From Myxococcota bacterium (GTDB lineage Bacteria; Myxococcota_A; SURF-8; G963663525), in the NCBI GenBank assembly GCA_963676915.2, contig CAXXVK010000030.1, forward strand, positions 28,978 to 92,977: DNA of 64,000 nt, in the 5' to 3' direction. Shown here piece by piece: positions 38,832-57,045 of this stretch. The notes under the pieces are model-generated. The model was given only the letters and a program-made list of their open reading frames with translations, had not been told where the DNA came from and did no database searches. The first letter of the stretch is position 1, and each line of letters opens with the position of its first letter. The translations under genes were made by a program, and so were the position numbers.

Positions 38832-39876
38832 CGTACACCGCCTTTCCACTGAGGTTTTCCGATACCCAGCACGCGGCTTCCTCGGCGACGGTCGAGCAAT
38901 GCCCCGAACCAGAGCAACAACAGCGCCGGAATCAGACCCCAACGATAGAGTTCATCGTATTGGGTGTAGAGAGACGCCTCGAATTCCGTTCGCTGCATGC
39001 GCGAAATCATCTCTTTGAGTTCAATCAGCGATCCACCCGCCTGAAGGCTGAGATACCGCCCCCCGGTGGAACGAGCGATACTGACCAACAACTGTTCGTT
39101 GAGGCGACTCATCACGGTACGGCCATCTTTGCCCTTTTTGTAGCCTAGATTCGCTCCGCTGTCGTCGGTCTCGGGAATCGGTTCTCCCGAAGCCGATCCG
39201 ATACCCACCGCCACGACCTGAATTTTCTCTTTCGTGAGCTTGGCCAAAGCTTCCTTGACCTTCTCGCCGTGGTCCTCGCCGTCGGTCAGTAAAACCACAA
39301 GGCGGGACTTCGCTTTGTCTTTGCTGGAGGTCAACAGCGTATGTGCCTGATCCAGCGCCTGACCGATGGCGGTTCCCTGCACGGGAATATCTTCGGGTGA
39401 CACGGATTTCAAAAAGAGCTTCGCAGCGGCATAATCGGTCGTCATCGGGCATTGAATGAAACTGGTCCCGGCAAAGGCAATCAATCCCACCCGGTCACCT
39501 TTCAGTTCATCGATCAACGATTCCAACTCCAACTTTGCCGGCGTAGACGGTCGGGCCGGATGTCCCGAGCCAGCATCGATTTCGAAACATCGAGTACGAA
39601 CAGCAGATCGATGCCTTCTTTTTTCACCAGCGTGGAATTGCCGCCGACTTGGGGTCGAGTCAGGGCGAAAATCAAGAAAACCAACGCCCCAAGAATGAAA
39701 AACGAGGACAATAGGGATTTGCGGTCCGAAAAAGACAACAATAACCGTTGGGCCGGAACAGCATCGGCCAATCGTCGGGCACGGTGTACGAATGCACGGC
39801 GACCGAGCCAGAGAATAAAACCGACAAAGGGCAGGCACAGCAACCAGAACAACATTTCTTCCTGGTCGAATCTCAT
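38828..39876 (-). CDS. batB: BatB vWA-domain protein, apparent -1 frameshift near 39538
   Basis: ALTRPQ and LDVSKSM (MIDAS) in ORF 39514..39894; DRVGLIAFAG, PMTTDY and LTDGEDH in ORF 38828..39838. One added G gives DRLRRAKLELE. Confidence 0.85.
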
Positions 39877-40880
39877 GGAAACCTCCTCAGCCACAATCCG
39901 CCAAGCGCGACTTCCAGAAGAATCAGCAACAATGCGGGCAAAGCGAAAGCCGAATAGATTTCATCGTACAACACGAACTGCTGGTCCGGCAGTTCGGTGG
40001 TTTCCAACTCGTTGATCCGGTCGAAGATGCCTTGCAGAGAATAGGCATCGGTCGCTACGAAATATTCGCCGTTCGATAGTTGTGCCAGTTCTTTCAACAA
40101 CTTGGGATTCACCGGGAAGTTTCGTTGGACAACGGTTTGGCGTCCGAACATGTCCCGCGCCGGGTAATCGACCAACCCGCCTCGACCAACTTGCACCGAG
40201 TAAATTTTCACACCCAGTTCTTTGGCCAGTTTGGCGGCATCGACAGGAGATGTGGTACTGCGGTTGTCGTCACCGTCGGTCAACAGGATCATGACCTTGC
40301 TTTTGGCTTCCGAGTTTCGCAGACGCAGCAAACCTGTGGAAAGTGCATCGCCGATGGCAGTGCCATCCTCGATCAAGCCCTGTAGTACGGCATCCACGCT
40401 GATTTGCTTAAGTACGTTTTTGAAAATCGAACGATCCAGCGTCAACGGGCACTGACTGAAGGATTCCCCGGCGAAAACCACCAGTCCCAGGCGGTCGTTC
40501 TCTCGTCCGTCGGCGAAACGAGCCACCGTTTCTCGGGCCACGGTGAAGCGGTCCGAGGGTTTGAAGTCGAGCGCCAGCATCGAGGGCGACATATCGAGCA
40601 CCACCACAATGTCGATACCCTCTTTGAATATCGGTTGGTCCTCGGCTCTCGTACGCGGTCCGGCCAGAGCGACAACCAATAAAATCAGAGCCAGCGTCCG
40701 AAGGATTTTCGGCAGGTGGCGCAGTCGAACACGGGCGGTTTTAGGAATTTTTCCGGCGAATCCCAACCAGGGATAGGCCAACGTAGCCGTTCGGCGGCGC
40801 TCGAATAGGAGATCCAACAACAGCGGCACGAGCGCCAGCGGCATCAGCAACAGGAGGTAAGGCGCACTAAACTCCACCAT
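39873..40880 (-). CDS. batA: BatA vWA-domain protein
   Basis: ALAGP, EGIDIVVVLDMSPSM, DRLGLVVF, GTAIGDAL, LLTDG, ending LRRFP. Confidence 0.9.
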   Translation of the reverse strand: MVEFSAPYLLLLMPLALVPLLLDLLFERRRTATLAYPWLGFAGKIPKTARVRLRHLPKILRTLALILLVVALAGPRTRAEDQPIFKEGIDIVVVLDMSPSMLALDFKPSDRFTVARETVARFADGRENDRLGLVVFAGESFSQCPLTLDRSIFKNVLKQISVDAVLQGLIEDGTAIGDALSTGLLRLRNSEAKSKVMILLTDGDDNRSTTSPVDAAKLAKELGVKIYSVQVGRGGLVDYPARDMFGRQTVVQRNFPVNPKLLKELAQLSNGEYFVATDAYSLQGIFDRINELETTELPDQQFVLYDEIYSAFALPALLLILLEVALGGLWLRRFP

Positions 40881-42114
40881 GGGCCTCCTTCGTTCGTTCC
40901 ACCACCATGTGGGCGTGCTTCAACAGTTCATCGGCCTGCTCTTCTCGCGGTTCGTATTTCGCGAATTTCACCAAGTCGCAAGCCAGAAAAAAGTCACCGA
41001 TCAGGCGATCGTCCAAATCTTTCAGATACATTCCGGCCAATAGAGAACGAATCTCGTCGGTCGTTTTCTCCAAAGCATCGATTCCGTAGCGGTTATCCAG
41101 ATATTCGCGGACGATCTGGGAGATTTCGGTGTGGAATTCGTCGAATTTCCTTTGCGGCACGAGATTTCGAGCCGCCAGTTCGGCGAGTCGTTCCAGCGCG
41201 ATTTCATGCGCAGGACGCTTGACGATCACCTCGAGCTGTTCCGGCATCATGGCCCGCTTTTTCTTGGCATGCCGCACGAGTAAAAATACCAAGAGAGCAA
41301 TCAACAACGCTACAGCAATAGCCGCCAGCACACCGACGAGCGTCCAATCCTCGATCCTCAATGTTTCCGGTCCTTTGGAGGGTTTCGGATCAAGCTTGAT
41401 CTGCATCGGTTCGGGTTGTTGTCCGGGTTGGGATGGTGGTTGCACCGCATTGGGGTCCATACCTGGAGGAACCACTTGCGTTCCGGGAGGAAGCGGAGCG
41501 TTGGGATCTATAGGAGCCGCCTGAGAACCCGCTCCCGGCGGCAAAGCCAACGGTTGTCCCATGGATGAAGGAGGAGGAGCCTTGGGACGGCTTTTCTCGT
41601 CCTCGGCCCGGCGCTTCATTTCTTCTTGCGCCACTTTCATCGCCTCTTCTTCCAGCATGGACTTGATCGTCACCCGCACGAGATCGCTTTTGTATTCCGT
41701 TTTTTCGCCGTTTTGCGTAATCGTGAACGATACGGGTGGGAGTTCCAAAGCACCGGTTGTGAAACTGAGCAGAGTGAAATCGAACCGCACCGTGTGCTGT
41801 CCTTCTTCCATTCCGGCCCATTCGGACTTGTCTTTCAGTTCGAACTCGCCGAATTTTGGCGAATCCTTCAATCGTGCCTCGAATTCTCCGGCAGATCGAA
41901 ATGTCACCACCAGATGCACTTCGTCACCGATGCGACATTCCTGGGGACGTGTTTTTTGAGAAATCGTCACCTTCGGGAGCGAAACGGCCGATTTCGTCGC
42001 GTTGGGAGTGCTGTCTTCCGCCTTCGGTGCGTTTTGCGAATAGGCCGGAGCCGCTTCCAACCACGACAACAGAAAGACCAAAGCCAGTACAATGTGGAGG
42101 CATTTCCGAACCAT
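40867..42114 (-). CDS. Bat-operon membrane protein (BatD/DUF4381-like) with Pro-rich insert
   Basis: Own GGAGG RBS and ATG at 42114, signal peptide, Ig-like domain, TM helix, C-terminal ALEKTTDEI...DLVKFAK. Confidence 0.75.
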   Translation of the reverse strand: MVRKCLHIVLALVFLLSWLEAAPAYSQNAPKAEDSTPNATKSAVSLPKVTISQKTRPQECRIGDEVHLVVTFRSAGEFEARLKDSPKFGEFELKDKSEWAGMEEGQHTVRFDFTLLSFTTGALELPPVSFTITQNGEKTEYKSDLVRVTIKSMLEEEAMKVAQEEMKRRAEDEKSRPKAPPPSSMGQPLALPPGAGSQAAPIDPNAPLPPGTQVVPPGMDPNAVQPPSQPGQQPEPMQIKLDPKPSKGPETLRIEDWTLVGVLAAIAVALLIALLVFLLVRHAKKKRAMMPEQLEVIVKRPAHEIALERLAELAARNLVPQRKFDEFHTEISQIVREYLDNRYGIDALEKTTDEIRSLLAGMYLKDLDDRLIGDFFLACDLVKFAKYEPREEQADELLKHAHMVVERTKEAHGGV

Positions 42115-42116
42115 CG

Positions 42117-43036
42117 TCACCTCCGCAACGCCTCGACGACGGAAAAAAGCCGCCAGTCGTGATGTGTATTCTTCGTCGCAAGCGACATGAATGGGAAACG
42201 CTTTGACCTTTTTAAATGCCTGATCCAGACGGGTTTCGTAGTCGCTGCGTGCTTTCTCCAGCGCTTTTCGAACCTCCTTGCTCGATGTATCGGCCCAGAT
42301 CATCTGGCCGCTTTCCAGATCGCGCATGGGCACCATTCCCCAATTGTCGATCCGTGTTTCGGCACGATCTCTCACCACGAGCGGTACGAGGTCATGCCGT
42401 CTTTGTACGAGACTCAACGCTTTTTCGGGTACGGGACCGGCGAAATCGGAAATCAGAAACACCACCGAGCGATGAATCCGCAATCCCGCAATGAATTTCA
42501 GCGCTCGTTCCAGATTGGAACCGGCGGAAACGGGATCGTGCATCAGTACGTCGGACACGACACGTAGCGCGTGTTTCCGACCTTTTTTCGGTACGATCAG
42601 CTTTTCCACCCGATCCGTGAACAGCACGAGCCCCACTTTGTCATTGTTCCAGATCGCGGGAAAACGCCATCAAAGCAGCCAGTTCGGCAGCCAGTTGACG
42701 TTTGGAGCGCGGATGGGTACCAAACAGCATCGAGCGCGACACGTCCACCGCCAGAAGTACCGTAAGTTCCCGTTCTTCCTGGTATTGTTTGACGTACGTT
42801 TCTCCTGCACGGGCGGTGACGTTCCAGTCGATGTCGCGGATGTCGTCGCCCGCTTCGTAGGGACGAACCCGGTCGAACTCCATTCCGCGCCCCTTGAATG
42901 CGGAGTGGTATTGTCCGGCGAGGGTTTCTTCGACAACCCGCCCCGTGGCAATTTCGATCCGGCGGATTCGCCGAATCAATTCCTTGCGCGAAAGTTTCGG
43001 TTCCGCGCCGATGTCGAAAGGATCGAGTTCCCACAT
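42117..43036 (-). CDS. DUF58 family protein, apparent frameshifts near 42659 and 42131
   Basis: GRGMEFDRVRPYEAGDDIRDIDWNVTAR, EERELTV, DVSRSM; continues NNDKVG...FLISDF after a 1-base deletion. A second deletion gives FFRRRALRR* with TGA at 42117-42119. Confidence 0.82.
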
Positions 43037-43052
43037 CGGAAAAACTCCTCGC

Positions 43053-44123
<1,071 letters not shown>

Positions 44124-44277
44124 CGCGACTCTCCCCGCTTTGCTATGGCTCTGGTGGCTGAACAACCCCATACCATCGATTATTCCCGCTGACGAAGAAA
44201 AAATCAGGATATGAAGAAAAGAAAGAGGCTGAAGCCATTCGAAAAACAAAACATCGGAATTTTTCGTGTAGATCTAC

Positions 44278-48052: not shown

Positions 48053-48637
48053 ATTTTCCTCCTTGGCGAAAAGTACCTCTTCGCCATGAATACAAAAGAA
48101 ACGAAACCGAAACCTCCCGATTCCTTGATTTTATACTGCCCTTTTATAATGAAATGATTTCCTGCAAAGTCAATAGAGATGCACTGTATTGAATGAAAAA
48201 TGATAGATTTATGCGTTTCGGAGCGTATCTTCTCACTGGCATTGCAAATGAACCAAGATACCCACTAAAAAAAAGTGTTACGTTTTATAACCAACGGTAA
48301 ATACACCATTTTTCCGATTTAAAGAGAAGGCGTCTGTTTCTTGAAACGTGTAATTTGACAAGGAATAACGTCTGTGAGTCATAGTTTCACGGACAGAAAG
48401 TCCGAGAAACTGCGCAAGCTATTGAAAGCACAGAGCCTTCCGGGCTTCACACGAAATAGGATGAAACACTTGGTTTTAGTTTCAAGTTCACTATCTGAAA
48501 AATTGGGAAACGTTCTGACAAACAAACCCATTGCGTTTGGCCGTTCAGTCGCTACAATATCGTGGAATCGATTCCAAGAATTTCAAAGATCGACCAATGG
48601 ATGTATTTTCCGTTTTCAACCAAAGGAAGCTTTCGAC

Positions 48638-50785
48638 ATGAGATCCAAAGCCGTTTCGCCCATCATCGTTTGCAGTCTGTTTTTGCTTGTATTTTGGGGA
48701 TGTGCTTCGTCTCCCGCCTCCGCTCCCGCCGTTCCGGCGACGCTTGCCAAAGCGCCCCTTCTCCCGGATGTTCCCGAAACCCGCCGAGAAAACCACGACG
48801 AGACGATTCACGGTTACGACGTCTCCGATCCCTACCGCTGGCTGGAAGATGGAGAAAAAGCGCGCCTTTGGATCGAAGCCCAGAATTTCCGTACAAAAGA
48901 GTACATGGCGCTTCAGGATCGCCCCAACCTGGAAAAAGATGTCGAGCAGTTTTTCCAGGTCGGCTACGTCGGATCGCCCCAACGGGTCGGCGAAAAAGTA
49001 TTTTACGTGAAAATCGACCATCCACCCGGAACCGAAATGAACCAAGCGGCATTGTTCGTGCTGGAAAACGGCAAGGAACGCCAACTGGTCAGCCCGGATA
49101 GCCTGGATCCCAGCGGCAAAACCGCTCTCGACTGGTATCAAGCCTCTCCCGGCGGTCGCTATGTCGCCTACGGACTGAGCCTCGATGGTTCGGAAAACAG
49201 CACGCTGTCGGTGCTGGACCTTCAAACCGGCAAACTCCTGACAGATACTCTACCGGAAACTCGGCATTGTTCGGTTGCATGGCTCAAAGACGAAAGCGGC
49301 TTCTACTACACGCGCTATCCGAAAGGTGAACGATACAACCGGCACGTCTATTTCCATCGTCTGGGAGACGACATCGCGAAAGATGCGAAAATCTTTGGAG
49401 AAAACCGCAAAAAGACCGATTGGCCTTCCCTGCATATATCCGAAGATGGCCGATTCCTTTTCATCACTGTTTTCACTACGGCAACCAGTAATGACTACTA
49501 TATGTTCGACCGAAAAACCAAGAAATGGCAAACCCTCGCCGAAAACCTGGACGGCCAGTTCCACAGCGCGTTTTTCCATGGCAAACGGCTCTTTTTGACG
49601 ACAACTTTCCAAGCTCCTAAAGGACGTGTCGTTAGCCTGAATCCTAAGCAGCCCAAACCCTCGAAATGGAAAACCATCATTCCCGAAGGCGAAGCAACGC
49701 TTGTAAGTGCGCTGAACACTAAAAGCAACCTGGTGGCCTACACGATCGAACGCGCCGTAACCCGGTTGCGATTGTACGGGTACGATGGCGCGGAACGGGG
49801 AGAAATCCCTCTGCCTACCTTGGGAAGCGTCAATGCTCTGGACAACGATGCCAAAGACGATACGTTGGTATTCTCCTTCGGATCGTTCATGCATCCGCCA
49901 ACACTGTACAAAGTAAACATTGGCGAAAATCCAAGCAAAATCGCTGAAGTATGGACACCCCAAAACCTCGACCTGGAACGTTTCGTTGTCAAACAGGTGA
50001 TGTACCCTTCGTATGACGGCACTCGGGTGCCGATGTTCATCATTCATCGCAAAGACATGAAGTTGACAGGCGAAACTCCCACCTTACTGACCGGCTACGG
50101 CGGGTTCGACATCAGCCTTACCCCATATTTCAGCCGTAACGCGCTGTTCTGGATCACCCGTGGCGGCGTCTATGCCGTGGCCAACCTTCGCGGCGGTGGC
50201 GAGTTTGGCCGAGCCTGGCACGAAGCGGGTATGAAAGAGAAAAAGTTCCAGGTTTTCCAAGACTTCCAGTACGCCATGCGCTACCTGCACCGGGAAAAAT
50301 ATACCAATCCCGACAAACTGGCCATCATCGGCGGTTCGAACGGCGGTCTGCTGGTCGGTGCAATGTTGACTCAGGTTCCTTACCTGTTCGAAGCGGCCGT
50401 GGGAGATGTCGGCTTGTATGACATGGTACGTTACCACCTCTTCCCGCCGGGAGAAATCTGGAGCACCGAATACGGCATGGCTAAAAATCCGAAGGATGTC
50501 GGATACTTGTGGGCTTATTCTCCATATCATCAGCTCATCGAGGGCGTACACTATCCGGCCACGTTGATTGAAACCGCCGAGTCCGACACCCGCGTGCACT
50601 GGTTGCATTCCGCCAAATTCGCCGCCGCACTGCAACACGCGAACGCATCGAAAAATCCCATCCTGTTCCTATTGAGAAGCAAAGCCGGACACGGACAGGG
50701 AAAAAGCTGGTCGGAAACGGTCAAAGAATACGCCGACAAATACCGCTTCATCATGAGCCGTATCGGCGACCCTTCCGCTCCGTAA
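48638..50785 (+). CDS. Prolyl oligopeptidase (S9A), probable lipoprotein
   Basis: Lipobox VFWGC; DPYRWLED, GYGGF, RGGGEFG, GGSNGGLL (Ser), DTRV (Asp), AGHG (His). Confidence 0.93.
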   Translation: MRSKAVSPIIVCSLFLLVFWGCASSPASAPAVPATLAKAPLLPDVPETRRENHDETIHGYDVSDPYRWLEDGEKARLWIEAQNFRTKEYMALQDRPNLEKDVEQFFQVGYVGSPQRVGEKVFYVKIDHPPGTEMNQAALFVLENGKERQLVSPDSLDPSGKTALDWYQASPGGRYVAYGLSLDGSENSTLSVLDLQTGKLLTDTLPETRHCSVAWLKDESGFYYTRYPKGERYNRHVYFHRLGDDIAKDAKIFGENRKKTDWPSLHISEDGRFLFITVFTTATSNDYYMFDRKTKKWQTLAENLDGQFHSAFFHGKRLFLTTTFQAPKGRVVSLNPKQPKPSKWKTIIPEGEATLVSALNTKSNLVAYTIERAVTRLRLYGYDGAERGEIPLPTLGSVNALDNDAKDDTLVFSFGSFMHPPTLYKVNIGENPSKIAEVWTPQNLDLERFVVKQVMYPSYDGTRVPMFIIHRKDMKLTGETPTLLTGYGGFDISLTPYFSRNALFWITRGGVYAVANLRGGGEFGRAWHEAGMKEKKFQVFQDFQYAMRYLHREKYTNPDKLAIIGGSNGGLLVGAMLTQVPYLFEAAVGDVGLYDMVRYHLFPPGEIWSTEYGMAKNPKDVGYLWAYSPYHQLIEGVHYPATLIETAESDTRVHWLHSAKFAAALQHANASKNPILFLLRSKAGHGQGKSWSETVKEYADKYRFIMSRIGDPSAP

Positions 50786-50842: not shown

Positions 50843-51056
50843 AGCCCGGATAATTCATGAGAAATCGTCACGAGACGCCGAAAACCGACGATATTTCGCG
50901 AAGTTGGAACGATTTTCTAGAGGAATAAAGCTCCACCCCGAAGTCACGAAACACCGTGACTTCGGGGAATTTTTCGGCCTTTTCCATAATTTTGGAATCG
51001 TAGTTCCCGAATATTGTTCAAGGATTTTCAGGTAGAATCGTTTATGATTTCAGGCA
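50843..51056 (-). mobile_element. MITE-like repeat, copy B (inverted), with central hairpin
   Basis: Reverse complement of 50843-50915 closely matches the right arm of copy A (25787-25858). Internal CCCCGAAGTCACG-AAACAC-CGTGACTTCGGGG; the far end is more degenerate. Confidence 0.65.
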
Positions 51057-51082
51057 AAAAAAAAGACGGCTTAAAGCCGTCT
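51056..51082 (-). terminator. Rho-independent terminator of a minus-strand transcript
   Basis: AGACGGC-TTTAA-GCCGTCT followed by a long T run on the minus strand. Confidence 0.8.
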
Positions 51083-51228
51083 GAAAAAATCGATCTTCCC
51101 TGGGTTTTTGTGGAAATGAATGTGACGCACGTTACCATAAAGGGAGGGGAAATACGGTGAAATATCTGGGACAAGATTACTAGCGGATGTATGACCCCAG
51201 GGAAGATGGCAATATTGGTTGTCAAATA

Positions 51229-51327
51229 TCAAAGTCGTTTGCGAATGGGCTCGGGAATGACGCCTTTGATCGCCTGGCGTACGTTCTGAACCACGAGGTA
51301 TTCAATCAATTCCAGCATCGCTCGCAT
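51229..51327 (-). CDS. 32-aa small protein MRAMLELIEYLVVQNVRQAIKGVIPEPIRKRL
   Basis: TTAGGAG RBS 6 nt before the ATG; lies between the two stems; too short for the ORF track. Confidence 0.55.
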   Translation of the reverse strand: MRAMLELIEYLVVQNVRQAIKGVIPEPIRKRL

Positions 51328-51594
51328 GACGAACTCCTAACTTCAATAAGTAGATGGGGAACCGGGCTCATGAACCACGGGGATCGATGAAGATGATACT
51401 GCTGAGGATACTGATGTGAATGCATGATGCTGATTCTGATGCCAATCACCGATGATGAATACAAAGAACGGGAGCAGGAACAGTCACGGTACAAATTGCT
51501 ACAACAGAACCCGGTTTCCCATGAAAATGTTGCGGACTGGAAACTAGTCGCTGCTTTTGAGTTTTTAAAGAACGCAAGTTCTGGCCTATAAACC

Positions 51595-51611
51595 TTGCAC
51601 GCAGTGTGCCA
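51595..51611 (-). promoter_or_regulatory. Sigma54 (-24/-12) promoter
   Basis: Minus strand TGGCAC-ACTGC-GTGCAA (GG-N10-GC) with a very AT-rich upstream region (~51620-51850). Confidence 0.7.
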
Positions 51612-52347
51612 AAAACTGTTTTTTCACTTTTCAATGCGATCTATATTGTATAAACTATCGAAATTATTCACTTTTATTTATCTTTTTTCATTCTATATTA
51701 AATTATTTTGTTTTCTATTTTAATTTTAGGCGCATTTTTTTCGCCTTCGATTGATTTTTATCAAACAAACATACTCCATACTCTATACTAACGTATTTGT
51801 AATACTTTTAAAATTTCATAAATCATTGTTTTTTCAAGGCTATTTACAGGTTGCGCAATATTTTCGCCATATTTTCGCCGCCTTTTCAATTTTTGCGCAT
51901 TCTTTTCATTAGAGTTACTTTCCCCTGTTTCGTAGCACAATCACACGAGATTCCCTTTATTGTGTTCAAAAATCTGACAGGTATTCCGGGATTTCGTCAC
52001 ATGAAAATTACATCCAACACCAGAGCCTTTGAAAAGCTTTCCTTTATTGATATCCATCTCACGCTCTGAAAGCTGTACTGTCTCCTTTCGATCCTATTTT
52101 CCAATGACCAACCGAAAAACTGCCACGTTTACATCCCAGGAAAAAGGGGTTATACTTTCTTTTTTTTGGAATTCCTGAGCATACAGCATAATCCATAAAG
52201 GAATTTTTTTCGCCACGACTTCCACCTTGGATCGAAAGCGAATGAAATGCGTGCTGCCATCGGGAAAAAAAGAGCTCAGGAATCGACAAGATTCCTTCAC
52301 TCGACGGGACTTTTTGTTTTAGGGATCGAAAGATTTCGGAAAGACAC

Positions 52348-55300
52348 ATGGAAAAACACCCAAACGAGCAGGATAGACGTTTCGGCGCAATTGCCGTCAG
52401 ACTGGGACTCATCCGACAAATTCAGCTCGATAAATACTTCAACATGGGACCATTTACTCTTTCGTTGAAAGAGCATCTGATCCAAGAGAAAAAAATTTCC
52501 GAACAAGAAGCCAGGGAAGTTGAAGAAGCCATCGAAAGAAATGCGTTGAAATCTCAAGAAGATTTCGACACTATCGACGGCCTCGGCACTCCGGAATTGG
52601 AAGAAAGCGATACACTCGATCCTGAGGAAAGTACCCACACACCTGCACCCAAAGTCGAAATTATCGAGGATTCCGAATCCGGTGATACCTTGTGGACAGC
52701 CAATATTTCCGACAGACAGCATCAAGTGAAAGACGATCCATTTGCCCTTGAAGACTCCGACGAGGAAGAAGGTGCAACACTCTTTCTTTCGACGGAAGAT
52801 AGGGCAAACAGTCCAACGAAGATTTTGCATCCAGGTCTAGAAGACGATCCGACAAAAGGTTTCGATTCCGTAGGCGATGAGGAAGCAACGTTATTCGTTG
52901 CGGCTACCTCCCAAGCTCCTGCCCCATCGAAAACGCCTCCCCCGCCTCCTTTACAACAACCATCGCATCCGAAAACCAACAAACAGGAAAAATCGTCTTC
53001 CAAAGAATCCGATCGCGCCGGACTTCACATCGCAACGGAACACCCCGGACGCTACAAAATCATCAAGGAATTGGGGCGTGGAGGCATCGGACGGGTCATG
53101 GTCGCCGAGGACGACCACCTCGGACGACCGGTCGCGATAAAACAGCTTCTCAAGCAGGGAACGACCCGACTGGATGATCCCAACCTTACTTCCGATCCGA
53201 CTCTGATGCGTTTTCTGCTAGAAGCCAAGGTTACCAGTCAGTTGGAACATCCCGGAATCGTTCCGGTGCATGAAGTAGGAATGCGTCAGGACGGCTCTTT
53301 CTATTACACAATGAAAGTGGTCAAGGGGAAAACGCTCAAGCAATTGACCACCGGCAAGAATCTTGGCGGACGCCTCAAATTGCTGCCCCACCTGATCGAC
53401 CTTTCGCAAACCATCGCATATGCCCACAGCCGGGGAGTGATCCATCGGGACATCAAGCCCCAAAACCTGATGATCGGCGAGTTCGGTGAAACGGTACTGC
53501 TCGACTGGGGACTGGTCAAAGTCGAAGGTGAAAAAGACCTTCGCGAAAGTGAGTTGCATAAAGAACTGCAACTATTGAAAAACGCTTCCCATTTGGAAAC
53601 GGCTCAAGGCCGCCCGATGGGAACTCCGGCCTATATGTCTCCCGAACAGGCGGAAGGACGTATTTCGGAAATCGACGCCCGCTCGGACGTGTGGTCGCTG
53701 GGTGCCATGCTGTACGAACTCCTGACCGGACGCCCTCCGCACATTGGAAAAAACGCGTGGGAAGTCGTCAACAAAGTCATCAACCAGCCGATTGCCCCCG
53801 TCGAAACCCTGGAACCGAATGCACCACCGGAACTTTCGGCGATCTGTATGCGTTGCCTGGAGCACGACCCTGCCGACCGCTACGAATCAGCTATGGACCT
53901 TGCCCACGACCTGGACAACTTCCACACCGGCGGCCTGGTTTCGGCCTTTTCCTATAGTATATGGCAACTGATTCGACGCTGGGTCGAACGACACAAAGCG
54001 ATTGTCGCAACAGCTTCCGTCAGCCTTCTGGCGCTGATGATTCTTGCCATCTATTCTTATGTTACGATCAGCCTGAAAAACGTCGAGTTGAAAGTTCAAC
54101 GAGACGAAGCGGTTGCCGCACGCCAGGAAGCTCGACAGAATCTCGAACAACTTTACCTGCAACGAGCCTCTCTTGCAGAAAAAGAGCACAAGTGGGACCA
54201 GGCCAGCGTCTACTACAGTTCGGTGTTGTCTGAAACACGGGATCAAGCCGCCCTCGACGGCCTGTACCGTTCGCTCAGTGCCCCCGGTTCTCCCCAACTC
54301 GTCTTCACGGCACCGATGCGAAAACGGTTTTACTCCCTGATCGCAGATCCCGAAAACGAAACCCTGTGGGCTGGAGAATCCAACGGTATCCTGCAAAGCT
54401 GGCATCTCAAAACCGGCAAGCCATACCTTCCCCGAGGGGTATTTATCAAGCAGATTTCCTCCATGGCGATTTCGAAAAACGGCAAGCTGCTGGCTGTCGC
54501 CGGACAAGATACCGAGGACCGACTGATCAAAATCCTCTCGCTTCCCGAGTATCGCGTCCTGTCGATTCTGCGAGGTCACGGGCAACTTATCAGTTCGATG
54601 GCTTTTATCGACGATGACAACACGCTGGTCTCCGCCAGTTGGGACGGAAGCCTGCGTTACTGGGATCTTTCTCAGGGAAAACAAGTCCTTCAGTGTGATA
54701 TCGACCAAGGCTTTTTATGGTCGTTGGATATTTCTGAAAACGAAGAAATCGTCGCGGTAGGTGGCAGCCGAGGAGCCTTTACCTTGCTACCTACCCATGA
54801 ATGTAAAGCCTACGTTTCGATACAGCATCTACAAGTAGAGGAAGATCAATCAAGCTTTCTGTACGGGCTGAAATTCTGCGGCGACGACCGCTACGTACTC
54901 TCTGCGGATTCTCACGGTTTCATCAAACGGTGGTCCCTCGGATCGACCATTCACGAGCAGGAAATGGGGCGATTTTTCGGAGAAGTTTACAACCTCGACT
55001 GCGAAGGTGGACATTGGTTCGTGATCGGCGAAGAAGGTCACGTTCTCAGCGGATCGGTCGAACCGGCAGAGAATGAATCACCCCGCCATTGGCTGGACGG
55101 CATCCACGACTTATGGGCAGGTACCTGGATCGAGGATGGAAAATTTATTGCCGTTGCCGGTGGAGATGGCGTAGTGCGTATTCGAGATCGAAGGGGAAAA
55201 CTGGTCCGACAAACCCCCCAGGGTCACTACCGGGATCTGAAACAGCTTTCTTTCGACCGCACCGGAGAACGACTCGCCAGCGTGGACAGCGAAGGAGAAA

Positions 55301-57045
55301 CCCGCATCTGGAACCTTTCCTCGAAAACTATGGAAACCATCGAACCCGGCAACGCCGCAACAACCCTCGCGCCATCACCGGATGGCTGGTGGACCCACGG
55401 ATTCGTATCGCCGTTGCGCTACCGACAACCTAAAGAAGATAAAATCGCCCTTTGGTACGAAGGTGGAATCGAAGCCGGAATGGAGAACAAAACCATCCGT
55501 TTCCGCCGAAGGACACCGGATACCATCGGCAATAAAAAAACGGTCGAACCTCCGCGCGCACCGGAAAGTGCCTTGCTGCACCCGATTGCGGGTGTAAGCG
55601 ATATGTTTGTCGATGATCTTCAGCACAAACTGGGTTATCTGACCGAGGATGGTGCGGTAACCGTTCTCGGAGACGGAGGGGAACGCTGGAACCTGCCTTT
55701 CGCGTTAGCTTACCGGGCGGCATTTTCTCCCAATGGCACGGTGCTGGCTGTCGCCACCATGGAAGACCGCCTACGACTGTGGAGACTCGAAAAAGGCGGA
55801 AAACTCGTTGAATTGACCCAACCCTGCCCTATTCCCACAATCAAGCAAATCGTTCCGTTCACAGATACTTCGCTTGTCGGCTTGCTGCTTGCCAATGGTG
55901 CGTTCGATCTTTATGAACCTTCCACTCACACCAAACTCGCAACCCTGGTACGACCCGGTCACCCTTACTTGACAGCCAAGGCGCACCCCCTGAAAACCAT
56001 GGCGGCTTTGGGCGGGCAATCAGGAAAACTGGAAATCTTTGATTTCACTACAGATTTCTCACGAACCTCCGTTACATATGAAAACGACATAGAAATGATT
56101 TTGCCCGCTACCAGCGGCCAACGCTACTATGCCTCCTTCTTTCCCAGTCAGGTCATCAAATCCGATCCGCAAGGTCGAATTCTGTGGAGTCAAAACCCCA
56201 CGATGGGAAAAAACATCATGGCATTGAGTCCCGACGAGAAACTTTTGGCTGTGGCCAGTGACATTATGCATGAAATGGTCCTGCTCAACACCTCGGACGG
56301 GAAAGAGAAACAACGTGTTTCTGATCCCAACGGCATGTTCGCTACGCTTGAATTTCATCCGACAACATCTCGGCTGGCTACTCTGGATGGAGAGAACGTC
56401 GCCTCCATCTGGCAGGTTCATCCCGAATTGGTACGAGCTACACAGTTAAAAAGCCCCGAAGGAAGCCTGCTTTCCCTCGCGGCGTTGCCAGGCTCCGGTG
56501 AACGATGGTTGACCGGCTGTGAAGACGGCAGCATTCTGCTTTGGGACGGCAAAACGGGGAACATTTTGAAAACGATCCCTGGACATTTGGCTTCGGTAAC
56601 CAGCCTGGCCGTCTCACCGGATGGAAACGTGCTAGCCTCCGGTGGTGCGGATTTCACGATCCGATTATGGAACCTGCAAACGGGAGAATCCATCGCAAAA
56701 ATGCAAGGACACGCCAAACCCGTCACATCTCTCTCTTTCTCTTATCGTGGCAACTACTTGATATCACATGCACAAAAGGGAAAAACGATCTTATGGGACA
56801 TGGGAAAGCATCGAAGCCTCATCGGGTTCGAAAACTTAGGAACCCAACGTGTGCGCTTTTTGAAAAACACCGACCGGTTCATTACCGAAAAAGGGAATCG
56901 TGCTTACAGTTGGCCCTTGCTTCCGTGGACCTGGCAGACCCAAGGACAGGAAATTCAGAAAAAAATCTTCAATGGAACCTCTTTACGGCTCGATGGACTT
57001 GACGTGAAGCCCGCTTCTGCGGTAAACCCATTGACAACGTTCTAA
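52348..57045 (+). CDS. Hanks-type Ser/Thr protein kinase with TM segment and C-terminal WD40 repeats
   Basis: LGRGGIG, VAIK, HRDIKPQN, DWG, GTPAYMSPEQ, DVWSLG; hydrophobic helix; GH...WD repeats. Confidence 0.93.
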   Translation: MEKHPNEQDRRFGAIAVRLGLIRQIQLDKYFNMGPFTLSLKEHLIQEKKISEQEAREVEEAIERNALKSQEDFDTIDGLGTPELEESDTLDPEESTHTPAPKVEIIEDSESGDTLWTANISDRQHQVKDDPFALEDSDEEEGATLFLSTEDRANSPTKILHPGLEDDPTKGFDSVGDEEATLFVAATSQAPAPSKTPPPPPLQQPSHPKTNKQEKSSSKESDRAGLHIATEHPGRYKIIKELGRGGIGRVMVAEDDHLGRPVAIKQLLKQGTTRLDDPNLTSDPTLMRFLLEAKVTSQLEHPGIVPVHEVGMRQDGSFYYTMKVVKGKTLKQLTTGKNLGGRLKLLPHLIDLSQTIAYAHSRGVIHRDIKPQNLMIGEFGETVLLDWGLVKVEGEKDLRESELHKELQLLKNASHLETAQGRPMGTPAYMSPEQAEGRISEIDARSDVWSLGAMLYELLTGRPPHIGKNAWEVVNKVINQPIAPVETLEPNAPPELSAICMRCLEHDPADRYESAMDLAHDLDNFHTGGLVSAFSYSIWQLIRRWVERHKAIVATASVSLLALMILAIYSYVTISLKNVELKVQRDEAVAARQEARQNLEQLYLQRASLAEKEHKWDQASVYYSSVLSETRDQAALDGLYRSLSAPGSPQLVFTAPMRKRFYSLIADPENETLWAGESNGILQSWHLKTGKPYLPRGVFIKQISSMAISKNGKLLAVAGQDTEDRLIKILSLPEYRVLSILRGHGQLISSMAFIDDDNTLVSASWDGSLRYWDLSQGKQVLQCDIDQGFLWSLDISENEEIVAVGGSRGAFTLLPTHECKAYVSIQHLQVEEDQSSFLYGLKFCGDDRYVLSADSHGFIKRWSLGSTIHEQEMGRFFGEVYNLDCEGGHWFVIGEEGHVLSGSVEPAENESPRHWLDGIHDLWAGTWIEDGKFIAVAGGDGVVRIRDRRGKLVRQTPQGHYRDLKQLSFDRTGERLASVDSEGETRIWNLSSKTMETIEPGNAATTLAPSPDGWWTHGFVSPLRYRQPKEDKIALWYEGGIEAGMENKTIRFRRRTPDTIGNKKTVEPPRAPESALLHPIAGVSDMFVDDLQHKLGYLTEDGAVTVLGDGGERWNLPFALAYRAAFSPNGTVLAVATMEDRLRLWRLEKGGKLVELTQPCPIPTIKQIVPFTDTSLVGLLLANGAFDLYEPSTHTKLATLVRPGHPYLTAKAHPLKTMAALGGQSGKLEIFDFTTDFSRTSVTYENDIEMILPATSGQRYYASFFPSQVIKSDPQGRILWSQNPTMGKNIMALSPDEKLLAVASDIMHEMVLLNTSDGKEKQRVSDPNGMFATLEFHPTTSRLATLDGENVASIWQVHPELVRATQLKSPEGSLLSLAALPGSGERWLTGCEDGSILLWDGKTGNILKTIPGHLASVTSLAVSPDGNVLASGGADFTIRLWNLQTGESIAKMQGHAKPVTSLSFSYRGNYLISHAQKGKTILWDMGKHRSLIGFENLGTQRVRFLKNTDRFITEKGNRAYSWPLLPWTWQTQGQEIQKKIFNGTSLRLDGLDVKPASAVNPLTTF

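Follow-up and report, generated by a model that had tools for sequence, protein, structure and literature searches.

A genus-restricted sigma-54-type transcription unit of the Myxococcota that encodes a conserved 32-residue microprotein and may double as a regulatory RNA

The stretch of DNA analysed here (the window) comprises 64,000 nucleotides (nt) of a Myxococcota bacterium (assembly GCA_963676915.2, contig CAXXVK010000030.1, positions 28,978 to 92,977). On its minus strand, from about 51585 to about 51056, we find a single gene with a predicted RNA of ~530 nt. Judged from the comparison of related sequences, this unit is real, unannotated and restricted to one genus, with a sigma-54-type promoter and a conserved microprotein of 32 amino acids (aa), and the same comparison supports its being discrete on the minus strand, bounded by that promoter and by an intrinsic terminator. 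Transcription, dependence on sigma-54, translation and any action in trans are, all four, what we infer from these sequences. Three of them were compared, namely the window with its genome (G000), a genome of the same genus (G001) and a variant from a metagenome (X2/X3), which was available as a list of differences only, so that two sequences could be aligned. The elements of the unit and its upstream region are as follows, in the direction of transcription.

51853 to 51868, minus strand: distal dyad resembling an activator site, GGCGAAAATATTGCGC, 243 base pairs (bp) upstream of the T of TGGCAC
51729 to 51745, minus strand: proximal dyad resembling an activator site, GGCGAAAAAAATGCGCC, 120 bp upstream of TGGCAC
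51596 to 51611, minus strand: sigma-54-type promoter, TGGCAC-N6-TGCA (GG of the -24 and GC of the -12 element), kept in G001 and X2
51584 to 51586, minus strand: predicted transcription start, ~12 nt past the GC of the -12 element, placed by sigma-54 geometry
51569 to 51582, minus strand: 5'-terminal hairpin AGAAC/GUUCU, stem invariant, the sole change of G001 in the loop (51577)
51532 to 51551, minus strand: second leader hairpin GCGACU...AGUC.GC, stem invariant, a 2-nt deletion of G001 in the loop only
51507 to 51522, minus strand: 5' arm of stem 1, with G001 changes at 51517 and 51516 that face changes at 51360 and 51359
51370 to 51506, minus strand: inner 137 nt of the 5' domain, with many AUCA/CAUCAG words, non-coding, without codon periodicity
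51354 to 51369, minus strand: 3' arm of stem 1, pairing with 51522-51507
51334 to 51338, minus strand: Shine-Dalgarno sequence AGGAG with six bases between it and the ATG, the same in G001 and X2
51229 to 51327, minus strand: open reading frame (ORF) of the 32-aa microprotein, stop codon included, ATG at 51327
51196 to 51207, minus strand: 5' arm of stem 2, 11 of 12 pairs invariant in the three sequences
51134 to 51158, minus strand: hairpin ACCGUA/UAUGGU (six pairs) with the 13-nt loop UUUCCCCUCCCUU at 51152-51140, stem invariant
51094 to 51139, minus strand: block of 46 nt identical in the three sequences, the longest of the unit, including the 3' arm of stem 2 (51104-51093)
51056 to 51082, minus strand: intrinsic terminator with an 8-bp stem, a 3-nt loop and a U run, a U-rich stretch before it, stem invariant

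A first-pass annotation, made from the window alone, had listed the main features of this strand, and every one of them lies where it had been placed: the promoter (given as TGGCAC-N5-GTGCA) at 51611-51596, with its elements kept in G001 and X2; stem 1 of 16 bp with one mismatch and one G-U pair, enclosing 137 nt; the AGGAG ribosome-binding site with the 32-aa ORF, which is coding by the pattern of synonymous substitutions described below; the perfect 12-bp stem 2 around 91 nt; and the terminator at 51082-51064 with its T run. Its estimate that about 80% of the unit is non-coding likewise agrees with a coding share of ~19% of ~530 nt.

The match to G001 extends from 51626 to 51053 with 88% identity over 576 nt, beginning just 5' of the promoter and stopping just 3' of the terminator, and both flanks are unalignable. 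Similarly, the contig of X2 aligns from 51028 to 51596 with 33 differences and one insertion of 1 nt, and runs into unrelated sequence past both ends. As a background, the adjoining prolyl oligopeptidase shares 82% of its protein and 77% of its DNA sequence with G001, and 47% of 182 four-fold sites in its gene are identical. It is because of this conservation that the unit stands beyond chance, which the motifs themselves do not show.

Among everything searched, the unit was found only in this genus. It is single-copy in its own genome. A DNA similarity search of 40 relatives returned G001 as the sole true match, a 23-nt match in a further genome (G010) being due to chance, and a covariance model of the 3' domain, run against 151 genomes of the phylum (119 genera), matched G000 and G001 only. 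No match was obtained in collections of plasmid, phage and viral contigs. In seven other genomes of the same order, neither a -24/-12 motif nor a similar peptide could be found in the flanks of the peptidase gene (~1.5 kb on each side), and degenerate patterns of the peptide had no matches in genome contigs and two in metagenome contigs, both unrelated chance matches. The k-mer search of public sequencing runs led to one run that resembles the source of the window (X1) and to X2 and X3, both from one sample of another study, which hold the third variant.

With respect to the ORF, 12 bases differ between the window and G001. Eleven of these changes are synonymous and one replaces a residue (Q18H); by codon position, 11 are third-position changes and one, the synonymous change of CGA to AGA, is a first-position change. 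The differences to X2 amount to six, all of them synonymous and at third positions, and in total 17 of 18 substitutions are thus synonymous and 17 of 18 affect third positions, although the two comparisons are not fully independent since two of the X2 changes are the same in G001. The ribosome-binding site, the ATG and the TGA are kept although adjacent bases vary, those near AGGAG being 51339, 51332 and 51331. By this pattern of substitutions, the ORF is clearly under selection at the protein level, which makes the unit a microprotein mRNA at the very least rather than a plain non-coding RNA. Alternative frames were dismissed where stops or indels in G001 or X2 interrupt them or where changes would hit first codon positions. 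Upstream of the ORF, the extension that G001 leaves open in frame meets TGA and TAG in the window, and a leader frame without stops in the window is interrupted by TAA in G001. Indels break the frames in the 3' domain, and the antisense frame on the plus strand would take changes at first codon positions. Frames of 53 and 65 aa in the 3' domain and of 55 and 67 aa on the plus strand were among those dismissed.

The peptide is already called as a gene in two public records, which form a cluster of two members, and a phmmer search against 1.84 billion representative proteins matched the ortholog in G001 only. There were no matches in Pfam, NCBIfam, PADLOC and the sequences of the PDB, and the ESM Atlas gave no usable match. 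A single-sequence model predicts a helix over residues 2-23 and a short one over residues 26-31, with a mean predicted local distance difference test score (pLDDT) of 85. By its sequence, the peptide is basic, with a net charge of about +3 and nine charged residues; it has no hydrophobic run of at least 18 residues, no membrane-spanning stretch and no signal sequence, and two prolines lie in its tail, IPEPIRKRL.

The promoter consists of TGGCAC at 51611-51606, a spacer of ACTGC plus G, and TGCA at 51599-51596. All three sequences have TTGGCAC and TGCA at the same six-base spacing, and the spacer reads ACTGCG in the window, GACTTC in G001 and ATCTCC in X2, so that the window differs at 6 of 6 positions from the former and at 4 of 6 from the latter. 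Elements kept around a spacer that is free to vary are what one would predict if nothing but the -24 and -12 elements mattered. The genome carries rpoN (Sigma54_DBD, 218.7 bits, contig C72) together with 26 matches to Sigma54_activat, 22 of which are strong and represent enhancer-binding activators. The predicted transcription start rests on the usual sigma-54 geometry.

Further upstream, we read the two dyads as putative activator-binding sites, based on their sequence and arrangement. Their strict form, GCGAAA-W4-TGCGC, occurs twice in the 5.18-Mb genome, both times upstream of the unit. The shorter core CGAAAWWWWTGCG has 4 matches in G000 and 10 in G001, and in each genome two of them are 123 bp apart (C30:80708 and 80831 in G000; C2:494631 and 494754 in G001), with the nearer dyad 120 bp from TGGCAC in G000 and 119 bp in G001. 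The other core matches of G000, on contigs C27 and C60, were taken as chance because both are inside long ORFs. The dyads lie in a gene-free, A+T-rich region of 720 bp (51627-52347) between the unit and a divergent kinase gene, which is otherwise unalignable with G001. It also holds copies that resemble half-sites, namely GGCGAAAATATGG at 51879-51867 and TGCGCAAAAATT near 51905-51894, and in G001 a perfect TTCGCGC/GCGCGAA inverted repeat is located at a similar distance, about -300.

Turning to the non-coding parts, the 3' domain (51207-51093) differs at 5 of 115 positions from G001 and at 2 of 115 from X2 (96-98% identity), and the 5' domain (51522-51354) at 18 and 13 of 169 positions, respectively (89% and 92% identity), as compared with 11 and 6 of 33 third positions in the ORF. 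Seven blocks of at least 15 nt are invariant, and the two longest, 51139-51094 (46 nt) and 51162-51141 (22 nt), are both part of the 3' domain. The least conserved parts are the first 60 nt of the 258-nt leader and the linkers, with ~76-81% identity to G001. As far as can be judged from these substitutions, selection acts more strictly on the non-coding parts, and on the 3' domain most of all, than on silent sites. With its 5' and 3' parts more constrained than silent codon positions, the RNA probably serves some function besides coding for the protein.

Within the 3' domain, stem 2 pairs 51207-51196 with 51104-51093, and a perfect stem of at least 12 bp appeared in 1 of 300 dinucleotide shuffles. 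Its mean pair probability is 0.99 in the window and 0.94 in G001. The domain presents the ACCGUA/UAUGGU hairpin, whose stem and C-rich loop core are invariant in the three sequences and whose loop UUUCCCCUCCCUU resembles an anti-Shine-Dalgarno sequence, with an unpaired probability of 0.97 in the window and 0.92 in G001; by its CCUCC, the loop is complementary to purine-rich ribosome-binding sites. Past this hairpin, a CA-rich stretch that is invariant and mostly unpaired leads to the closing stem, which is followed by a U-rich stretch and then by the terminator, whose stem-loop (51082-51064) has 8 pairs, 5 of them G-C, and in which the same loop base is changed in G001 and X2.

The 5' domain is closed by stem 1, which comprises 14 Watson-Crick pairs, one G-U pair and one A.C mismatch, with pair probabilities of 0.73-1.0 at 13 of 16 positions. 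In G001, four clustered changes are found at directly facing positions which, in a register with one bulge, turn A-U into G-C, G-C into G-U and U-G into U-A. One change is hence compensatory (A-U to G-C), in one genome only, and the two others keep the pairing. The 5' domain shows no three-base periodicity in its substitutions, its candidate frames run into stops in either of the two genomes, and the insertion of X2 sits behind 51469. AUCA and CAUCAG words are dense at 51396-51460 (minus strand), where a direct repeat CAGUAUC..CAGUAUC is contained in an invariant block of 21 nt (51417-51397); several AUCA words are substituted in G001 or X2, and there is therefore no strict repeat motif that is conserved. 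An internal sigma-70-like promoter at 51420-51393 was rejected, as the -10 element of this promoter is destroyed in X2.

In the four local hairpins, i.e. the 5'-terminal, the second leader, the C-rich-loop and the terminator hairpin, changes and indels are confined to the loops. Overall, an RNA structure is plausible, not demonstrated. The claim of the first-pass annotation that this is a structured RNA with two looped domains is based on the two long stems, with one compensatory change in stem 1; substitutions in X2 contradict the fold predicted inside the 5' domain, the fold of the whole transcript has a z-score of -1.52 and the covariation test lacks power. A scan of Rfam, which had been proposed as a check of novelty, returned four matches at E-values up to 10, none near its gathering threshold, the best being Bp1_781 (20.3 bits against a threshold of 80) and isrD (16.5 against 37, on the terminator). 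No family was thus matched, including RNAIII, CrcZ, Pxr, Qrr, GlmY and the riboswitches.

As for the regulatory context, the genome, at 90.8% completeness, has CsrA, and searches of it found neither Hfq nor ProQ. The failure to find Hfq fits a loop-driven, Hfq-independent mode of action. A role as a CsrA sponge was rejected, since a count by eye gave only four GGA words in ~530 nt and no enrichment. Duplex energies over 7,138 start regions had a mean of -20.7 with a standard deviation of 4.9 and a best value of -41.7, and start regions with ribosome-binding sites of the AGGGAGGGG type pair with the loop, as any C-rich loop would.

From our point of view, the evidence favours, if by a modest degree of confidence, a sigma-54/activator-driven microprotein mRNA that doubles as a regulatory RNA, i.e. 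a dual-function RNA. The unit would be switched on by sigma-54 RNA polymerase and a dedicated enhancer-binding activator, which would bind both dyads upstream of the promoter (at 120 and 243 bp). The ~530-nt transcript would be translated from a strong ribosome-binding site into the mostly helical, basic microprotein of 32 residues. Its 3' part would form a domain that is closed by a stem of 11-12 bp and presents the invariant C-rich loop, with a long, invariant and presumably single-stranded stretch directly before the terminator. The most likely action of this part would be base-pairing with purine-rich ribosome-binding regions of other mRNAs without Hfq, in the manner of a dual-function RNA or of small RNAs that come from a 3' untranslated region (UTR); C-rich hairpin loops that pair with ribosome-binding sites are also the mode of RNAIII. 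The leader, closed by stem 1, would be a conserved element that may act in cis or bind a protein. Between the two options that the first-pass annotation had left side by side, a regulatory or a dual-function RNA, the second is the better one, its RNA activity being putative. As such, the unit is a new family of an already known kind.

Several observations weigh against such a dual function or against the parts it is built from. Elsewhere in the genome, perfect complementarity to the 3' domain does not exceed 14 nt, which by our own estimate is about what chance would give, and the duplex energies of the candidate start regions form a continuous tail with no outlier. Because these target searches gave no outlier, a trans-acting role is something that we infer. 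TGGCAC-N5-NTGCW occurs 25 times in the genome against ~21 expected from composition, which makes the promoter match weak if taken alone, and the canonical TGGCAC-N5-TTGCW is not enriched either (6 occurrences in G000 against ~5 expected) despite the ~22 activators. No gene for a sigma-54 activator was found near the unit. The whole transcript folds with -133.4 kcal/mol compared to a mean of -124.1 for shuffled sequences (z = -1.52); 6 of 100 shuffles equal or surpass its stability. In the covariation test, 253 of 500 shuffles reached the observed value, a test that is powerless with only two aligned sequences.

The stems themselves add to these points. Windows of 16 positions with at least 15 pairs (G-U allowed) were reached in 67 of 300 dinucleotide shuffles, and stem 1 alone is therefore not unusual. 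The outermost pair of stem 2 is G.A in G001, where neighbouring changes permit a different short extension. At positions of the 5' domain predicted to be paired, 7 of 7 substitutions in X2 break the pair, and those in G001 keep it in 6 cases and break it in 6; the inner fold predicted from the window alone is consequently not supported, and is contradicted by the X2 substitutions. Lastly, no RNA runs were among the public runs matched by k-mers, which is no evidence either way.

The main rival to a dual function is an ordinary microprotein mRNA, in which only the 32-aa protein acts and the leader and 3' UTR work in cis, setting translation, stability or processing and perhaps binding the basic tail of the microprotein for autoregulation. 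We regard this as possible, if the less convincing of the two. The ORF carries the clearest signature of selection, no target in trans stands out, the inner folds are unsupported, and a 5'-terminal hairpin and a strong terminator are typical stabilisers. What this explanation has to account for is a 3' domain that is 96-98% identical, compared to 67-82% at the third positions of the ORF, invariant blocks of 46 and 22 nt that exceed the usual needs of stability elements, and an invariant C-rich loop that is predicted to be exposed. If, at the other extreme, the unit were a purely non-coding regulatory RNA with an untranslated 32-codon frame, the ~80% of it that is non-coding and conserved would be explained at once, and sigma-54-driven non-coding RNAs such as CrcZ, Qrr, GlmY and Pxr do exist. 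This is nevertheless very improbable, given that substitutions in the frame are synonymous, and at third positions, in 17 of 18 cases, that variation in adjacent bases leaves the ribosome-binding site, start and stop untouched, and that an antisense frame would take the changes at first codon positions.

The boundaries of conservation, which coincide with a promoter and a terminator on one strand, speak similarly against a conserved DNA element, such as a site of protein binding or recombination, that is not expressed as a transcript. Inverted repeats can be DNA sites, yet the coding frame under purifying selection lies on that same promoter-terminator strand and the G-U pairs of stem 1 work in the minus-sense RNA only, so that we give this idea hardly any credence. 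About as doubtful is the possibility that the peptide is a precursor or substrate of the adjacent prolyl oligopeptidase, i.e. a ribosomally made and processed peptide, with the conservation of the RNA being secondary. The unit lies tail-to-tail with the orthologous peptidase gene in both genomes and the tail IPEPIRKRL has its two prolines, but seven other genomes of the same order have the peptidase and no unit or peptide within ~1.5 kb on either side. Moreover, the peptidase has a lipoprotein-like N-terminal signal (by eye) and the peptide has no signal sequence, modifying enzymes are not adjacent, and the conserved UTRs would be left unexplained. The least probable of all is, in our opinion, a module akin to type I toxin-antitoxin systems, in which a long folded mRNA limits the translation of its own small toxic peptide. 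A small ORF within a long RNA with long-range stems would suit it; however, the peptide has nine charged residues and no membrane-spanning hydrophobic stretch, there was no sign of a conserved antisense promoter or RNA (in X2, the sigma-70-like site of the leader is destroyed), the unit is single-copy and without a PADLOC match, and the ribosome-binding site is not sequestered in a conserved manner.

If the dual function holds, its closest analogues differ from it in several respects, and the unit belongs to none of the known families with which it was compared. RNAIII of Staphylococcus aureus encodes the 26-aa delta-hemolysin (hld) and acts on many mRNAs without Hfq, and the Pel RNA of Streptococcus is 469 nt long (PMC12612679). 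The unit resembles both in being an RNA of ~0.5 kb with a very small protein and further, here putative, regulatory parts; unlike them, it has no sequence or Rfam match to either and comes from another phylum. It further differs from RNAIII in its sigma-54-type promoter, that of RNAIII being AgrA-dependent, in a peptide that is basic and not membrane-lytic in character, in the position of its ORF in the middle of the RNA, and in that regulation by the RNA is putative.

With regard to sigma-54, GlnZ (from glnA) and CJnc230 of Campylobacter jejuni are described as small RNAs from the 3' UTRs of RpoN-dependent mRNAs. Their parent mRNAs encode a normal-sized enzyme or an operon, whereas the unit encodes the 32-aa protein only, and there is no homology. 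CrcZ, Qrr1-5, GlmY, Pxr and NfiS are stand-alone RNA genes with a -24/-12 promoter and an upstream activator. In contrast to the unit, they are non-coding and mostly shorter, none of them was matched in Rfam at E-values up to 10, and the A-rich or GGA motifs of CrcZ- and Csr-type sponges are not enriched in the unit, as counted by eye. The dual-function RNAs of enterobacteria and Vibrio are much shorter, Hfq-dependent and driven by sigma-70 promoters, unlike the unit with its ~530 nt in a genome in which Hfq was not found. Small ORFs of 15-43 aa combined with a base-pairing region are reported for SgrS/SgrT, AzuCR, Spot 42/SpfP and VcdRP, with AzuC being an amphipathic protein of 28 aa and VcdP measuring 29 aa (PMC8915982, PMC8916003, PMC8672173). 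The AzuCR RNA is given as 164 nt long, and SR1 is likewise counted among the dual-function RNAs. Our literature search yielded such analogues and nothing that describes the unit; papers are not searchable by sequence, and we make no claim that it is unpublished.

The genes around the unit complete the picture. The prolyl oligopeptidase (S9) is encoded at 48374-50785 on the plus strand and has, by eye, an N-terminal lipoprotein-like signal; its start is probably later than listed because the first 82 residues of the listed ORF are without a counterpart in G001. In a scan of genome contigs, the relatives obtained for this peptidase reached at most 47% identity and belonged to many phyla. Downstream of it, at 50936-50967 (plus strand), lies a strong 13-bp hairpin with a T-rich tail, so that the convergent peptidase gene and unit each have their own terminator, ~90 bp apart. 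On the other side, and divergent from the unit, 52348-57045 (plus strand) encodes a protein of 1565 aa with an N-terminal Ser/Thr kinase domain and many WD40/beta-propeller repeats. In G001, the upstream neighbours are, by our own reading, recX-like and kdsC-like genes, which in G000 are on another contig. As the 1565-aa kinase gene does not occupy this upstream position in G001, synteny is broken at the unit, which is itself intact. At a greater distance, genes for a MoxR-type AAA ATPase, a DUF58 protein and a BatA/VWA protein follow each other in a row at 39873-44249 (minus strand), similar to an aerotolerance operon, beside a gene for a 1238-aa M6-peptidase/beta-helix protein.

One could speculate further that the unit is a master regulator comparable to RNAIII in a bacterium in which Hfq was not found, where a signal-sensing activator would act through the sigma-54 promoter on a 530-nt RNA with three modules. 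We put this forward tentatively, as the less probable outcome. In such a scheme, the anti-Shine-Dalgarno-like loop together with the 46-nt stretch might silence a set of mRNAs, the 32-aa helical protein might serve as an effector in the same pathway, and the stem-closed, AUCA-rich 5' domain might sense a signal or titrate a protein. If the dual function itself holds, the unit would represent an RNAIII-sized dual-function RNA under sigma-54/activator control, of which we know of no described example, as far as a non-systematic literature search goes; to our knowledge, the lineage has no described regulatory RNAs either.

Overall, the weight of the finding is limited by its distribution, one genus and three sequences. 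It illustrates that three sequences can suffice to validate a very small gene missing from the annotation, through promoter elements that are fixed around a free spacer, activator sites at a fixed spacing, a pattern of synonymous-only substitutions and constrained UTRs. As such, it brings to light a gene for a 32-aa protein and two conserved RNA domains that had escaped genome annotation, and the conserved upstream sites could lead directly to the cognate activator and to the signal it responds to.

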